A DNA stretch of 64,000 nt from Planctomycetota bacterium (GTDB taxonomy: Bacteria > Planctomycetota > Planctomycetia > Pirellulales > Pirellulaceae), in assembly GCA_037144155.1 (NCBI GenBank), contig JBAWXH010000008.1, positions 28,261 through 92,260 on the forward strand, in the 5' to 3' direction. Below the pieces are notes generated by a model. That model ran no database searches, was not told the origin of the DNA, and worked only from the letters and a program-made list of their open reading frames with translations. The position numbers were made by a program, and so were the translations under genes. Within the stretch, counting starts at the first letter, position 1. Each line of letters begins with the position of its first letter. Shown in pieces: positions 5,145 through 63,892 of the stretch.

Positions 5145-5166
5145 TGAGCCTGAGGCGCTAGCCGAT
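5145..5166 (-). repeat. REP-like unit (family A, TCGGCTAGCGCCTCAGGCTCA)
   Basis: tgagcctgaggcgctagccga is the exact reverse complement of the units at 35772 and 45498. Confidence 0.85.
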
Positions 5167-5246: not shown

Positions 5247-6053
5247 TTGCAATTCAATAAAGCATCAGGAGAAACAGCTTTGGAAACCGTACAGCCTGAA
5301 GAGAATAGGGTCGAACCAAATTCCTCCATCACTCCAAAAAAACGAATGGTAATACCCCAGTTGTTCTGGATCTTCATCGCTTTCCTCGGAACGTACCTGG
5401 CCGTTGCATACGGATTGGTCCCGTTCTTGTGGAGCCTGTATGACCATCGTCATCCTGCCATAACCAAGTCTCCCACATTGACCGTGACCTCGGATGGACA
5501 TCCGGGAGACCCGATCAATTTGGCGCTCATTGGAAGCGAAGCAGACTTGAAACACGCCATGAAAGCAGCCGGATGGTTTAAAGCCGATCCCCTCAGTATC
5601 AAAGACGATCTCATGATTGCCGAAGGGACAATACTCAAGCGCCCTTATGACACAGCCCCGGTGAGCGATCTGTTTTTGTACGGTCGCAAAGAGGATCTCG
5701 CATTCGAACAACCCGTCGGCAACGATCCACGCAAGCGGCATCACGTGCGGTTTTGGAAGTCGGAACAGTTGGATGCCAATGGACAACCGGCATGGATGGG
5801 TTCTGGGACCTTTGATGAACGTGTGGGACTCAGCTACACCACCGGACAAATCACCCACCACGTCGATGCAGATATCGATCGAGAGCGAGACCATATCATC
5901 GATACCCTCCAAGCATCCGGTGGGCTTGTCGATCAAACGCCCATCGATAACTTTCAACCGAAGCACGAAGGCCACAACGGTGGGGGCGATCGCTGGATCA
6001 CCGATGGTCGGCTGATATCAGGTACTCTCAAGAAAGAAGAACCAGCCCAGTAG
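5247..6053 (+). CDS. LssY C-terminal domain protein
   Basis: One N-terminal TM segment; GDPINLALIG, GRKEDLAFEQ, RHHVRFW, THHVDADIDRERD, TDG motifs typical of LssY_C. Start uncertain. Confidence 0.8.
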   Translation: MQFNKASGETALETVQPEENRVEPNSSITPKKRMVIPQLFWIFIAFLGTYLAVAYGLVPFLWSLYDHRHPAITKSPTLTVTSDGHPGDPINLALIGSEADLKHAMKAAGWFKADPLSIKDDLMIAEGTILKRPYDTAPVSDLFLYGRKEDLAFEQPVGNDPRKRHHVRFWKSEQLDANGQPAWMGSGTFDERVGLSYTTGQITHHVDADIDRERDHIIDTLQASGGLVDQTPIDNFQPKHEGHNGGGDRWITDGRLISGTLKKEEPAQ

Positions 6054-6126
6054 AACGGCGGGCACTGTGCCGATCGATCGGGCCTCTTCAAAGAATGGGA
6101 TAAATCTGTGTATGTCGGCTAGCGCC

Positions 6127-6303
6127 TTTTGAAGTTGCGCCATTTGAGCCTGGCGAAGCCCCAATCCATGCTTTCCCGAGCTTTTTCGTACTCGTACTCA
6201 GCGTTAGCGGTACTCGTACTCGATGGGGGATCGTCGAGTACGAGTACCATTTCATTGAGTACGAGTACGAGTACGAGAGAGCTCAAACAGCGCAACTTCA
6301 AAA
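6127..6303. mobile_element. MITE-like element, copy 1 (177 bp, 14-bp perfect TIR, GAGTAC hairpin core)
   Basis: TTTTGAAGTTGCGC (6127-6140) and GCGCAACTTCAAAA (6290-6303), flanked by direct repeat CTAGCGCC (6119-6126, 6304-6311). Homologous to 17804-17980 and 63564-63747. Confidence 0.7.
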
Positions 6304-6337
6304 CTAGCGCCTCAGGCTCAAGAAGAACAGGTTCGAG

Positions 6338-6492
6338 GTCTACTTTGCGGCTTGGCAAAAGCAGTTACACGTTATGCCGGTCCCAAGGGCAATCTGCAAT
6401 TTCCATGGAATGAGCCGATGCCACTCGATTTGATAGAACGAATCGGGAAACTACAAATGCAACAAGACAACAACAAATCCGCCGCGAAATGA
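6338..6492 (+). pseudogene. 3' remnant of a DUF1801/YdhG-like gene with an internal frameshifting deletion
   Basis: VYFAAWQK (from 6338) joins out of frame to KAVTRYAGPKGNLQFPWNEPMPLDLIERIGKLQMQQDNNKSAAK* (6358-6492). No 5' half or start codon. Confidence 0.65.
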
Positions 6493-6721
6493 AAGTAATC
6501 ACCTCGCGTCCGCCGAATATTGATCCACACCGTTCACGCGGAGCGGTTAATGGCTCCGCCTTCAATCACATCACGCTCTTTATACGTCATTCGTTCACTG
6601 AAAACGTTGGTGATATGCAAACGTTGATTGCCAGACACTGTTTTCACGGGTACCGTACAGTATCGCTCAAATCAACAGTGTCGCTCAAATCGAACACCTG
6701 CCCTGACTCTCATTAAAGGCT

Positions 6722-16855: not shown

Positions 16856-17800
16856 ATGAGATCACGAATGCACCGCTCCTATTTACCGTTTCCTGAACGA
16901 TTCTTCTCAGGCTCGGTCATACTCACTTCGATGCAGCAGTGGGCCTTCTGTGCGATATTCTTTCTCTCCACATTCTTGGGGACAGAGTTGAACAAAGCAC
17001 GCTCTCAAGAGATATCAAGCGACGTTTCGCCTCGCACCCATTTGCAATTCCCCGGAGAGCGACTCGATGAATGGCATGGATTCAAACGCCATCGATTTGA
17101 TTTTCAAGGCAACGAAGCATGGGTCGTGGAACCGCGCAAGACTCTGGAGGGGGGATGGTTTACCTGGTGTCTGATGTTCCCCGATGCGTTCACGGATCGG
17201 TGCGCTGTTCCAGCCTTACTCGAGAGAGGATTTTACCACGTCTATTTATCTGTCGGCAATTCTTTTGGTTCACCGGCCTCCGTCCAACAGTTGGCCGATT
17301 TTCATGATTTCCTGATGGAGCGCGGGTTCGCTCAAAAGGCGGTGTTGATAGGCATTAGTCGCGGAGGTTTGTACGCGCATCGCTATGCAGCGGAGCATCC
17401 TACGCGCGTCCGTGTCATCTATGGGGATGCTCCCGTACTGGACATGAAGAGTTGGCCTGGCGGACGGGGAAAAGGGAAAGGTAGTCCTTCGGATTGGGAA
17501 GCCATGAAGAATGCGTACGGTTTCACCAATGAAGACCAAGCGATTAACTACAACGGCAATCCGATCGATACGCTCGAGCCATTGGCTCAACATTCGATTG
17601 CGATTATCTACGTGTCCGGAGATGCGGACGATGTGGTCCCCATCGAGGAGAACGCACTCTTGGCGACGGAACGCTATCGCAAACTAGCGGGTACGGTAGA
17701 GCTGATTCGCAAGCCTGGTGTCGGTCATCATCCGCATGGGCTTGAGGATCCGATGCCCGTCGTCGAGTTTATTCTGCAGCACATATCCGCCTCTGAATGA
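16856..17800 (+). CDS. Alpha/beta hydrolase (secreted esterase/peptidase-like)
   Basis: GISRGG nucleophile elbow, GDADDVV Asp, GHHPHGL His. The true start may be downstream. Confidence 0.8.
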   Translation: MRSRMHRSYLPFPERFFSGSVILTSMQQWAFCAIFFLSTFLGTELNKARSQEISSDVSPRTHLQFPGERLDEWHGFKRHRFDFQGNEAWVVEPRKTLEGGWFTWCLMFPDAFTDRCAVPALLERGFYHVYLSVGNSFGSPASVQQLADFHDFLMERGFAQKAVLIGISRGGLYAHRYAAEHPTRVRVIYGDAPVLDMKSWPGGRGKGKGSPSDWEAMKNAYGFTNEDQAINYNGNPIDTLEPLAQHSIAIIYVSGDADDVVPIEENALLATERYRKLAGTVELIRKPGVGHHPHGLEDPMPVVEFILQHISASE

Positions 17801-17803
17801 GGT

Positions 17804-17980
17804 TTTTGATATGGCGCTCTTTTGGCTTCCCTCGTACTCAATGAAATGGTACTCGTACTCGTACTCGTACTCGATGCGGTTTCTTCGAGTACGAGTACCG
17901 CTATCGCTGAGTACGAGTACGAAAAGCAAGGGAAAACAGGGAATGGGGCTTCGAGACAATCGAAGATCGCAGCTTCAAAA
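17804..17980. mobile_element. MITE-like element, copy 2 (177 bp, decayed TIRs, inverted central loop)
   Basis: ttttgatatggcgc ... tcgcagcttcaaaa ends. Same AATGAAATG / GAGTAC core and AAAAGC..GGGAAAAC..GGAATGGGGCT segment as 63564-63747. Confidence 0.65.
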
Positions 17981-35730: not shown

Positions 35731-35792
35731 TGAACCTGAGGCGCTAGCCGAGTTCTTTCGAAGCGCAAAAATCGGCTAGCGCCTCAGGCTCA
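35731..35792. repeat. Inverted doublet of REP-like family A units (21-bp stem, 20-nt spacer)
   Basis: tgaacctgaggcgctagccga ... tcggctagcgcctcaggctca, one mismatch. Confidence 0.85.
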
Positions 35793-36198
35793 TGGAAACG
35801 AAAAACGACTTTTGTCGCCAATGTCTTGCTCCGGTCGATGTCGAGGTTCCGAACCGTAGCAAGCAAAAGTTGTCGGAGCGGAGTGAATTCCCCCGCTATG
35901 CTCGTTTTGCTTGCATAACCCAACATTTCTTGCCTCGACCGCGGGAATGGGGGAGCGTGCGCAACCGTGCAAAACATCGCAGACTGTAGCACGATTTCAA
36001 ATCGGAAAACTAGGGATAGCGCCCTGCCCGTAGCAAATTAACGAAAAAAAACTTTCTGAAATCGGTTGTGCGGACTGGCCCTACCGACGCAACAAATCCT
36101 ATAGTGGGGTGTTGAAAAAGTATTAGTTGGTACGTTCAGCCTTCCGTCGGTTCGCAATCATCGTGTTTGTCTGTTGTTTGCTTGGGAGGAATGGCTTC

Positions 36199-45286: not shown

Positions 45287-45380
45287 CTCGTACTCCTATT
45301 CGATGACATGGTACTCGTACTCGTACTCGAATGATACCGCATCGAGTACGAGTACCGCGAAAGCTGAGTACGAGTACGAG
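45287..45380. repeat. Isolated GAGTAC hairpin core (copy 3, no TIRs)
   Basis: gtactc x3 - GAATGATACCGCATC - gagtac x2 - cGCGAAAGCt - gagtac x2. Confidence 0.8.
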
Positions 45381-45497: not shown

Positions 45498-45518
45498 TCG
45501 GCTAGCGCCTCAGGCTCA
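45498..45518 (+). repeat. REP-like family A unit (intact, empty site)
   Basis: tcggctagcgcctcaggctca, identical to 35772-35792. Confidence 0.85.
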
Positions 45519-61296: not shown

Positions 61297-63519
61297 ATGG
61301 TTTTTCATTCCAATTCAACAACAGCAAAACACCTTCGATGGCTCTTCGCCACCACCTACCCATGGATTTGCTTCGGAAGCATGGTGATGCTCACCACTGG
61401 CGTTCTGCCTGCGGATGAGCCTCAGGGCCAAGTTTCAACTAAGAGTTCTTCTTCCACGCTGCCGCAAGCCAGCCATCGATTCGTGCATTCCCATCGAGCC
61501 ACCGTGCGATGTGGACCCAGCGATGAGTACTACTCCACTGCGGCGCTTGAACGGGGAACACCGGTTGAGGTCTACGTCGAAACCACCGATGGTTGGTCAG
61601 GAATTCGGCCCCCTGAAGGTAGCCATGACTGGATTCCTGCCGACTCTGTCTATCTATTGCCAGGAGCACGAATCGCCGAGGTGTCGGTGGAACGGGTGGC
61701 AGCCTGGGTCGGTTCCGATTCACCGAAGAACGAAAAGCTCCTCTACCAGACCGAATTGATTCAAACGCAAACCGTTTCGATTTTAGGAGAAGCGTATCGA
61801 GGACCAGAAGAAGATCGGAAACTGTGGTTCCGCATCGCGCCTCCCCAAGGTGAATTTCGATGGGTGCGAACCGAACATCTTGGTACGGAGCCGATTGCCA
61901 AAGAAATTTCCAAAAAGAATGTTGGGGTATCCATGACTACCTCTCCAAAGAACATCACTGGAAGCGGCGTTAAAAAAGCCTCGTACCAGCCTCCTTCGAA
62001 AGATTCCAGCAACGCCCCCACGGAATCAACCGGCGAAGGGGAAATCGTATGGTCGGACGAAACAGAGCAACTGTCGAAAATCGATCGTGAGATCGAACGT
62101 GAACAGCAGGAACTGAATCGCACCGGAAAAGGTACCGCATCTAAGTCCCCGAAAGACCCCTCGGCTACACCCAAACGAACGAGTAGTTCTCAAATCAATG
62201 CCCGCAATGCATCGAACAAAATCATTTCTTTACAAACCACCGAATCGAAGTCGAATAACCGTTCCCATATCCCTACCGAAGGGGAGCCAAAACCTAGGCC
62301 GATCACCGGACCGGAGAGTGAAGAGCAGTACTGGCAAGCGATGCAACGTCAAGCGAACCAGCGCCAAGCGAAACAACCTCAGCAACAGCAACGCGATATT
62401 CCAGCCCCGTCGGGTGCGATGGGCAATATGCTGGGTCTGCTCGGTATCAGTGTCATCGATTCGAATCCCAAGGGGGCAAATGCCCAATCAACAAACTCCC
62501 TTCATCCCATCCCTCGTAGGGAACCGACTCGTAACGCGAGTCCCGCATATGGTGATAGTTACACTTCGATCGTTAATGGATACGACCCGGCCGACGGTTC
62601 CAGCCGCCTCGATCGATTGCCTCGGCCAAGAAGCCGTTATAGCACAGCCAAACGAAATAGTTTGGTTGCGGATCGTCAAGCCGATTCATCGAGCCTGCTG
62701 AATACGATCTTGAATTCGCGCGAGCCCCTTTGGGGCAATACGGACGAAAAACGCGTGGTAGATACCGCATCCAATGATCCGGCCAGCACTCCGATCGGAG
62801 TTTCTCCACCGATCTCCGCTGTGTCGTATCTCAATCCGAATAGTTCTATGCCATTATCCGGATCGCGAAGTTCCGATTGGGAGCAACCAGAGAGATTTCA
62901 GTCACCTCAGATCCAAGAGGCATTGCTTCAGTTATCGTCCATCGTCAGTCGGCCGACCAGCGAATGGCATTTGGCTCCCGTACGAGATACGGCCCTGTTC
63001 TGGATCGAACGGGGAGAAACGCCATTGCTACGAGGAGAAGCACGCTTGCTGATGGATCGCATCGATCGATTCGAGTCGATTCGTCAGAGAACAGCGGTGA
63101 TGGGTGGAGCACCTTCCATCGCTGGGCCTATCCGAACTCCTTCCATCGGCGGGCCCATCGGTACCTTGCCAGCAGTTGCCCCCAATGCAACGATGCCAAG
63201 CAACTTCTCGGTGTCGAACGCTTCTGGGAACAACTACACTCCCACCGCACCGTACACCGAAGCTGTTCCGCAACGTACCATCGACTCTGCCTCGGAACTG
63301 TCCGGTTGGTTGGTCGCAATGCATACGTCCGTCCCCGGCCAGCCTGAATTTGCCCTAACCGACGATGCGGGGAGCTTGATTGCCTATGTTCGCTCGACGA
63401 CAGGTCTCAATCTGCGTCGTTACGTGCAGCAACCCGTCACGGTTTTCGGGACGCGCGGATACATTCCCAATTTGGCCGCCAAGCAGATCGTTGCCGATCG
63501 CGTCGTAAGGATCCGATAA
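61297..63519 (+). CDS. Secreted protein with two SH3-like domains, a disordered linker and a conserved C-terminal domain
   Basis: ATVRCGP..YYST..L..G..VEV..GW..I.PP and WFRIAPPQGEFRWV; S/T/P-rich middle. Confidence 0.7.
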   Translation: MVFHSNSTTAKHLRWLFATTYPWICFGSMVMLTTGVLPADEPQGQVSTKSSSSTLPQASHRFVHSHRATVRCGPSDEYYSTAALERGTPVEVYVETTDGWSGIRPPEGSHDWIPADSVYLLPGARIAEVSVERVAAWVGSDSPKNEKLLYQTELIQTQTVSILGEAYRGPEEDRKLWFRIAPPQGEFRWVRTEHLGTEPIAKEISKKNVGVSMTTSPKNITGSGVKKASYQPPSKDSSNAPTESTGEGEIVWSDETEQLSKIDREIEREQQELNRTGKGTASKSPKDPSATPKRTSSSQINARNASNKIISLQTTESKSNNRSHIPTEGEPKPRPITGPESEEQYWQAMQRQANQRQAKQPQQQQRDIPAPSGAMGNMLGLLGISVIDSNPKGANAQSTNSLHPIPRREPTRNASPAYGDSYTSIVNGYDPADGSSRLDRLPRPRSRYSTAKRNSLVADRQADSSSLLNTILNSREPLWGNTDEKRVVDTASNDPASTPIGVSPPISAVSYLNPNSSMPLSGSRSSDWEQPERFQSPQIQEALLQLSSIVSRPTSEWHLAPVRDTALFWIERGETPLLRGEARLLMDRIDRFESIRQRTAVMGGAPSIAGPIRTPSIGGPIGTLPAVAPNATMPSNFSVSNASGNNYTPTAPYTEAVPQRTIDSASELSGWLVAMHTSVPGQPEFALTDDAGSLIAYVRSTTGLNLRRYVQQPVTVFGTRGYIPNLAAKQIVADRVVRIR

Positions 63520-63563: not shown

Positions 63564-63747
63564 TTTTGAAGTCGCGCTATTTTGGCTTCTATCGTACTCG
63601 TACTCAATGAAATGGTACTCGTACTCGTACTCGAAGATACCGCATCGAGTACGAGTACCGCTAACGCTGAGTACGAGTACGAGTACGAAAAAGCTAGGGA
63701 AAACATGGAATGGGGCTAAGAGTGGCTCGAATTGCGCAACTTCAAAA
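63564..63747. mobile_element. MITE-like element, copy 4 (184 bp, opposite orientation to copy 1)
   Basis: TTTTGAAGTCGCGC ... GCGCAACTTCAAAA with CTAG immediately outside both ends; right flank continues as a family A REP variant. Confidence 0.7.
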
Positions 63748-63892
63748 CTAGCGTCTCAGACTCATGGAAACGAAAATCGACTTCTGTCGGCTTTGTCAAA
63801 AAAGAATCTGCTCCGATTCATAGCGATTTCCGACAGAGGCAAACTGGATCGCCTGACTCGTCGCCAACTCCATGCTCAATCCAACTTTTTGT

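Follow-up and report, generated by a model that had tools for sequence, protein, structure and literature searches.

A MITE inserted in a REP unit of a freshwater planctomycete shares its ends with REP-targeting ISs of other Planctomycetota

What lies between the two halves of the split REP unit at 6115–6320 of the window (the whole 64,000-nucleotide stretch of planctomycete DNA analyzed here), and how did it come to be there? The segment reads tcggCTAGCGCC, TTTTGAAGTTGCGCcaTTTGAGC...GCTCAAAcaGCGCAACTTCAAAA, CTAGCGCCtcaggctca, and we have little doubt that its central part, the 177 bp at 6127–6303 of the forward strand, is a MITE, a non-coding mobile element, inserted in a REP of a freshwater planctomycete (copy 1). 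The element is bounded by terminal inverted repeats (TIRs), the left one at 6127–6149 on the forward strand and the right one, located by an inverted-repeat search, at 6281–6303 on the reverse strand; according to the repeat finder these 23-nt arms are 91% complementary and their outer 14 nt are exact. The left TIR, of which the first 14 nt are TTTTGAAGTTGCGC, fits the family consensus TTTTGAAGTTGCGCnnTT as well as the ends of the full-length ISs described below. Direct reading places the 8-bp sequence CTAGCGCC on both sides of the element, at 6119–6126 and at 6304–6311, as an exact target-site duplication. Excision of 6127–6311, that is, of the element and one 8-mer, joins the proximal part of the REP unit (6115–6126) to its distal part (6304–6320, forward strand) and yields TCGGCTAGCGCCTCAGGCTCA, an intact 21-nt unit. 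A preliminary description of the locus had claimed a MITE-like insertion in a REP with a target-site duplication, and the return, upon excision, of the unit found at 35772 and 45498; the 23-nt TIR and the exact repeat bear out the first claim, and the 21-mer regained is identical, as the second had it. Neither the TIR nor the REP unit is a chance match, because both occur far more often than expected: the TTTTGAAGTTGCGC 14-mer is present six times in the window with up to two mismatches, where 0.76 occurrences are expected and none of 100 shuffles reached six, and the REP unit is present five times against an expectation of 0.02. Nor are the junctions assembly artefacts, since independent metagenome contigs cross both of them, the left in runs X1, X6, X7 and X9 and the right in run X1. 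The two mechanical open reading frames that overlap the element have no Pfam match.

The window holds three copies of the MITE. Copy 2 (63564–63747, reverse strand; 184 bp, found by the TIR search) has an interior that is the reverse complement of that of copy 1, and adjoins on its right side the REP unit CTAGCGTCTCAGACTCATGG at 63748–63766; it is 93% identical to an element of a metagenome contig (L167:2310–2499). Its flanks repeat only CTAG (atcgCTAG on the left and CTAGcgtc on the right), the full duplication being absent. We rejected copy 2 as a clear case of an element lying between inverted REP arms, because, once the palindromic CGCTAG core is set aside, the likeness of its left flank to a REP arm does not exceed what chance would give; loss of 4 bp from the left junction (atcg-CTAG[cgtc]) and insertion in two arms followed by recombination are equally good explanations. 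Copy 3 (17805–17980, reverse strand) is decayed, with TIRs that read TTTTGATATGGCGC and TCGCAGCTTCAAAA and flanks that match at five of eight positions. Intact, empty units of the REP are found at 5145–5165 (reverse strand, by its match to the 21-nt unit), at 45498–45518 (forward strand, identical to the restored unit) and as a pair at 35731–35792, in which two inverted units are separated by a 20-nt spacer; the unit at 35772–35792 is identical to the restored one and its partner at 35731–35751 is the reverse complement with one mismatch. Filled and empty sites thus coexist in the window, as had been claimed, with two of the six REP units occupied. REP units extend at 35793–35818 and at 63767–63792 into a longer shared repeat, CATGGAAACGAAAAWCGACTTYTGTCG, and those at 45498 and 6304 do not, so that there are at least two types of REP-containing repeat. 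The spacer of the REP pair (35752–35771; gttctttcgaagcgcaaaaa) contains AGCGCAA followed by AAA, which is similar to the inner portion of the right TIR (AGCGCAACTTCAAAA); the likeness, which lies away from the usual insertion position, may be a coincidence or a remnant.

Elements with the same ends were sought by a scan of one genome per species with TTTTGAAGTTGCGC, which returned at least 120 loci. Thousands of chance matches to a 14-mer are expected, by our own arithmetic, in the 596 Gb covered, and single matches in unrelated phyla are accordingly put down to chance. Among the matches listed, inverted pairs 110–410 bp apart come almost only from Planctomycetota MAGs (Pirellulales, Planctomycetales, Isosphaerales and Gemmataceae). 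The short TIR-bounded elements, 31 among the matches listed, have 8-bp flanks that agree at all eight positions in 11 cases, at seven in six and at six in five, the chance of a single full match being 1.5e-5. Tabulating TIR pairs and their flanks, as the preliminary description had suggested, thus gave in these other genomes flanks alike at six or more positions for 22 of 31 elements. Nearly all of the 31 occupy the same place in a REP arm. A duplication is missing from about a quarter of the surveyed TIR pairs, and several of these stand between inverted REP arms. Only the termini are conserved between genomes; the interiors show no relationship to one another and in many cases are built of local REP-like hairpins. 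From 64 ends the family consensus is TTTTGAAGTTGCGCnnTT, and positions 17–18 (TT), which lie outside the search pattern, are 86%–95% conserved. Two TIR-bounded elements with REP-arm flanks were binned outside Planctomycetota, one in an Alphaproteobacteria MAG (L007) and the other on a 3.5-kb contig of a Chitinophaga MAG (L038); this placement probably reflects mis-binning, horizontal spread being the alternative.

The same ends also bound an autonomous partner, an IS of 1.5 kb (1502–1514 bp) that has a single gene for a DDE transposase of 454–455 aa and was read in five lineages, two of them multicopy (14 and 11 copies) and three with a single copy. In a Mariniblastus MAG the ends stand 1508 bp apart with one 455-aa open reading frame between them (L110), and the MAG carries 14 full-length copies (L110/L123–L136), with flanks that agree at all eight positions in eight copies. 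All of them lie in the arm of a REP hairpin, in the arrangement ...CCTCG-CTCACGCG-IS-CTCACGCG-TCGGGTT, and one copy (L136) has a variant 8-mer, ctcacgca, that is unique to it and present on both sides. Five Mariniblastus copies share one mismatched duplication, ctgacgct on the left and ctcacgcg on the right, which suggests that identical copies have exchanged flanks, or that another systematic process is at work. In the second multicopy lineage (ENA sample ERZ21831104; P0104/P0111; L141–L151) the 11 copies measure 1506 bp and encode a transposase that is 68% identical; the flanks agree at all eight positions in 10 of the 11, and seven different 8-mers occur, each matched on both sides. Three more full-length ISs, in JGI records and one GenBank-style record, came from a scan of a metagenome-contig collection with the extended end of the window element, TTTTGAAGTTGCGCnnTTTGAGC: L164 (1502 bp; transposase identity 71%), L160 (1509 bp; 66%) and L157 (1514 bp; 47%). 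The preliminary description had proposed a non-autonomous element that targets REPs, and had pointed to TIR pairs enclosing a transposase gene as a check; ISs of 1.5 kb with one DDE gene, the same ends and 8-bp duplications at the same REP position are what such a proposal predicts. All 14 copies at L123–L136 stand in one orientation relative to the REP arm. We rejected orientation-specific insertion as a general rule, because the lineage of the ENA sample has both orientations, six against four.

The transposase of L110 matches the Pfam family DDE_Tnp_1 with 63.6 bits (cut-off 23), and DDE_5 just under the cut-off of that family. Its best NCBIfam match is IS701 (NF033540), at 83.8 bits against a cut-off of 150, and the best IS4 model gives 58.8 bits, where 250 is required. 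None of the 12 family matches reaches its curated cut-off. In an alignment of eight homologues D98, D201 and E344 are invariant, as is the complete motif Y337-(2)-R340-(3)-E344-(6)-K351. More than 2,825 homologues were found at E ≤ 1e-10; the best 120 of them are 68%–76% identical, about 454 aa long and mostly carried on contigs of about 1.5 kb, and their source records call the homologues only "transposase" or "hypothetical". A PDB sequence search with the transposase returned no relative, and the 64-kb window contains no homologue of it.

Where in the REP do these elements enter? Empty sites were reconstructed for 26 insertions with duplications that agree at seven or more positions, and 19 of these could be oriented by the duplication itself. 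The 19 give the consensus target AaCCCGA-aGCGnGAG-CGAGGac, the other seven fit when reverse-complemented, and the target in the window, GAGCCTGA-GGCGCTAG-CCGAC, fits the same frame. All full-length copies of both multicopy lineages (14/14 in Mariniblastus and 11/11 in the ENA sample) stand in REP arms at ACCCGA-N8-CGAGG. Thus the elements enter the REP arm at a single point that lies between its outer and its inner stem, although the REP sequences differ between genomes. Outer REP arms in inverted orientation flank the elements at L008, L010, L072, L107 and L149. Such flanks would arise if both arms of one hairpin received an insertion and the two elements then recombined: L147/L148 has the form of the intermediate, a single REP hairpin with two full-length ISs in direct orientation, one in each arm, and L149, in which an IS copy is flanked by two outer arms only, that of the product.

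Taken together with the anatomy of copy 1, the ISs suggest how the REP unit in the window came to be split. The window MITE is best explained as a non-coding derivative of a 1.5-kb IS widespread in Planctomycetota, of which it retains no more than the ends of roughly 18–23 bp. The transposase would bind the TTTTGAAGTTGCGCnnTT ends, excise the element and join it to the target with an 8-bp stagger, the repair of which would leave the 8-bp duplication. The target is very precise and consists of the 8 bp that separate the outer stem ACCCGA from the inner stem CGAGG in the planctomycete REP arm, in this genome GAGCCTGA-GGCGCTAG-CCGA. As the MITE has no transposase of its own, we infer that a full-length copy, present elsewhere in this genome or in an ancestor, mobilized it in trans, presumably by this cut-and-paste chemistry. 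The hexamer hairpin in its interior, itself an abundant repeat, was probably picked up, or kept, as filler.

That hairpin occupies 6186–6274 of the window, where two inverted repeats and the predicted fold delimit a two-tier structure of (GTACTC)n and (GAGTAC)n. The interior of the window copies consists of this hairpin, with (GTACTC)2–3 and (GAGTAC)2–3, and of a non-palindromic left segment that sets the orientation. The preliminary description had called the hairpin the cargo of the element; it does sit inside copy 1, but it is also present outside TIR-bounded elements. A hairpin of the same two-tier design with no recognizable TIRs is found at 45287–45380, with an intact REP unit about 120 bp downstream of it, and in the lake metagenomes that contain this organism the hexamer core has a summed contig word depth 300–500 times as great as the flanks have, against about five to nine times for the TIR and REP bins. 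The TIR-less hairpin and the depth of the core show that the hairpin is an independent repeat and not private to the MITE. In the genome-contig collection the hexamer core was matched only in another Pirellulales MAG. A member of the hexamer-hairpin subfamily in a Pirellulales MAG (L122) has an exact duplication, cgcgtaag, in a REP arm. Further members come from metagenomes. The element of L167, at a different locus of a freshwater metagenome, is flanked by exact copies of CTAGCGCC and lies in a REP of the same family as that of the window; that of L162 is 88% identical to copy 1, with flanks that match at seven of eight positions; others lie at L165/L166. In L160, the hexamer-hairpin MITE is about 50 bp from the full-length IS, each placed against one arm of the same REP hairpin. 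Judged from these sequences, the two-tier hairpin is conserved throughout the subfamily, with compensatory GTGCTC/GAGCAC variants, and the subfamily recurs in freshwater metagenomes. The Pirellulales MAG STL-PLA40 also contains a repeated element of roughly 300 bp (L121:1650–1960 and L122:1450–1760), which is without the TIRs of the MITE family and is made of tandem arrays of 6–7 nt, (CTAGTG)n, (GTACTC)n, (ATCTCA)n and (ATTGCAG)n, round a GAGTAC...CGCTAACGCT core.

Is the element still mobile? The identification may be right and the element a dead fossil all the same, inherited vertically and decaying in a lineage that has lost the autonomous IS, a reading that we hold to be quite possible, if somewhat doubtful. 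The history of the locus bears on it. The left flank with its REP has no exact match in the metagenome-contig collection, and the neighbouring protein has none on record. A Pirellula sp. MAG is the nearest genome available (78% aa identity for the downstream PQQ/BamB-like gene), but just upstream of that gene synteny is lost; the upstream gene is a different one, and neither the REP nor the MITE is there. In four lake or freshwater metagenomes the close strains have the MITE at this site. No contig joint that skips 6127–6311 was found in eight metagenome runs, in which contigs break in the hexamer repeat. Because all close strains sampled in the four metagenomes have the filled site, the insertion at 6127 looks old and fixed rather than recent, as expected of a fossil. 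Moreover, the window contains no transposase, copies 1 and 2 differ by roughly 15%–20% and copy 3 is degenerate, and in the best-matching metagenome, X1, nothing akin to the Mariniblastus IS was found at a nucleotide identity of 80% or more, although this threshold is too strict to decide the matter, given that the transposases are 66%–77% identical at the protein level. Against a fossil speak the perfect 14-nt ends and the perfect duplication of copy 1, and the element of L167, so close to copy 2, which stands, with its own perfect duplication, at another locus in a related metagenome organism. Short fragments related to the transposase gene in the lake metagenomes X3 and X7, and the proximity of a full-length IS to a hexamer-hairpin MITE in L160, likewise speak against it. 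A divergent strain in runs X2 and X3 departs from the window at 6076, 22 bp after the LssY_C stop codon, and its loose end, CAATGGACCTTAAAGAAGAACGGGATAAGA, is readable for 30 letters.

Could the palindrome instead belong to the locus, as the gene of a structured non-coding RNA or as a regulatory or terminator structure, the flanking repeat being mere local REP repetition? We consider this very improbable. The fold predicted for copy 1 as single-stranded DNA is very stable (−59.9 kcal/mol; z = −12), and a terminator-like stem–loop lies at 6209–6248. All three window copies follow stop codons at a distance of 5–73 bp (copy 1 by 73 bp, after the open reading frame at 5247–6053; copy 2 by 45 bp, after 61297–63519; copy 3 by 5 bp, after 16856–17800). 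Furthermore, the hexamers of L160 and L161 are GTGCTC/GAGCAC, a compensatory change on both arms that keeps the hairpin. However, a position after genes is a property of the REP target and not of the element, only the termini are conserved between genomes with unrelated interiors, the 8-bp flank varies from site to site and yet matches on both sides of each element, and the same termini bound a transposase gene. An RNA gene in particular was dropped, since an Rfam scan of 5900–6500 at E ≤ 10 found no family and gave only chance matches to miRNAs and snoRNAs, with a best E-value of 0.3. More improbable still is a REPIN-like doublet of the REP system, moved by a REP-associated tyrosine (HUH/Y1) transposase (RAYT) in place of a DDE enzyme: copy 1 does lie inside a REP, and L008, L010, L072 and possibly window copy 2 lie between inverted REP arms, like the interior of a REPIN, but inverted arms are explained by insertion in two arms and recombination (L147/L148 to L149), REPIN/RAYT systems have a Y1 HUH transposase, no TIR-defined ends and no duplication, whereas copy 1 has an 8-bp duplication and 18–23-bp TIRs shared with an IS that encodes a DDE transposase, and no RAYT gene adjoins any copy examined. 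Enzymes of the IS200/IS605 type are not known to leave a target duplication or to use terminal inverted repeats.

The element in the window is therefore best compared with MITEs and their parent ISs. Copy 1 agrees with the usual description of a MITE, in that it is shorter than about 600 bp (177 bp), has no coding capacity, is bounded by TIRs and a duplication of fixed length, recurs at unrelated loci (three copies in the window, and subfamily copies in L122, L160–L162 and L165–L167) and has its ends in common with an autonomous IS, although the ISs are in other genomes. It resembles MITEAba12 (PMC6382973), which is likewise short, non-coding, bounded by TIRs and a target duplication, and has its ends in common with an IS that supplies the transposase in trans. 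MITEs of that type are without a strict REP target, however, whereas the planctomycete family keeps about 18 bp per end throughout the phylum and has lineage-specific hairpins as interiors. By its features the parent IS is best classed as an IS4-family-like element close to ISPepr1 rather than as an IS701 element; NCBI's curated models leave it unassigned. Members of the IS4 family have the full YREK motif and direct repeats of about 7–13 bp, and the ISPepr1 subgroup combines a length of 1500–1600 bp, 7–8-bp repeats, ends of the form YT-AA-YTT---A, a complete YREK motif and an AT-rich target (De Palmenaer et al., 2008; PMC2266710). Going by published features only, the planctomycete IS is alike in its length (1502–1514 bp), its 8-bp repeats, its complete YREK motif and its T/C-T ends; it differs in that its ends fit YT-AA-YTT---A in the first two positions only and in that its target is a GC-rich REP arm. 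IS701 provides its best NCBIfam match, together with a weak Pfam match to DDE_5, and has a similar size of 1400–1550 bp. In contrast, IS701 elements have duplications of exactly 4 bp and mostly are without the Tyr of YREK (PMC2266710), whereas the planctomycete IS has an 8-bp duplication, an invariant Tyr and a score far below the cut-off. It is the complete motif together with the 8-bp duplications that argues for a likeness to IS4 rather than to IS701.

It is well established that ISs of five families target REPs, among them the IS4-family ISRm22 of Sinorhizobium meliloti (Tobes & Pareja, 2006; PMC1525189), placed in subgroup IS4Sa by De Palmenaer et al. (PMC2266710). ISRm22 shares the DDE_Tnp_1 (formerly Transposase_11) type with the planctomycete IS and, like it, has a REP as its specific target, every genomic copy being inside one (PMC1525189); it differs in its phylum and in its REP, the likeness being one of published description. 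No MITE derivatives of ISRm22 are reported in those two papers (PMC1525189; PMC2266710). With copies within REPs at a fixed position, the planctomycete IS corresponds to the type 1 REP association of Tobes and Pareja. Other ISs that target REPs or BIMEs are IS1397 and ISKpn1, of the IS3 family, and ISPpu9, ISPpu10, ISPa11 and IS621, of the IS110 family (PMC1525189; PMC12288879), the last group being still under dissection (PMC12288879). They, too, are highly specific for a fixed position within REP palindromes, but their transposase families and chemistry are unrelated; IS110 elements, unlike the planctomycete IS, have no TIRs and no typical duplications. IS3 elements make duplications of 3–4 bp.

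The preliminary description had put the locus forward as a candidate for an undescribed system, which overstates the case, because the MITE and its parent IS are a conventional pair within the IS4 superfamily, and the targeting of REPs by ISs is established (PMC1525189). REP-targeting ISs and MITEs are well known, no new kind of system is revealed here, and only the precise, phylum-wide choice of target and the near-invariant ends exceed routine annotation. No description of the end sequence or of a planctomycete MITE was found in the open literature covered; what we have is a conventional MITE of a phylum-wide, REP-targeting and apparently undescribed IS of that superfamily. Planctomycetota, in which little mobile DNA has been described, thereby gain an IS/MITE family defined by its ends, the length of its duplication, its target and its type of transposase. 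The family accounts for many of the breaks in planctomycete MAG assemblies and for many of their 1.5-kb orphan contigs. Filled and empty REPs could serve as strain-typing markers for freshwater Pirellulales, and an IS4-superfamily case of base-precise REP targeting could help to study how DDE transposases choose their targets.

The ends are near-invariant (TTTTGAAGTTGCGCnnTT) in transposase lineages down to 47% identity. In a more speculative reading, which we think unlikely, this IS/MITE group and the planctomycete REP would form a phylum-wide co-evolving pair, in which the transposase recognizes some structural or composite property of the REP, as opposed to a plain sequence, and the MITEs spread lineage-specific hairpin modules to the 3' ends of genes. 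If so, the DDE transposase would be unusually site-precise, and the GTACTC hexamer array could be a protein-binding or terminator module. As for the surroundings of individual IS copies, that of Neorhodopirellula pilleata (L152:1–1296; SJPM01000057) adjoins a transposase gene (DEDD_Tnp_IS110/Transposase_20) of the IS110 family, which is known to target REPs, and that at L150:2449–3687 adjoins a group II intron reverse transcriptase.
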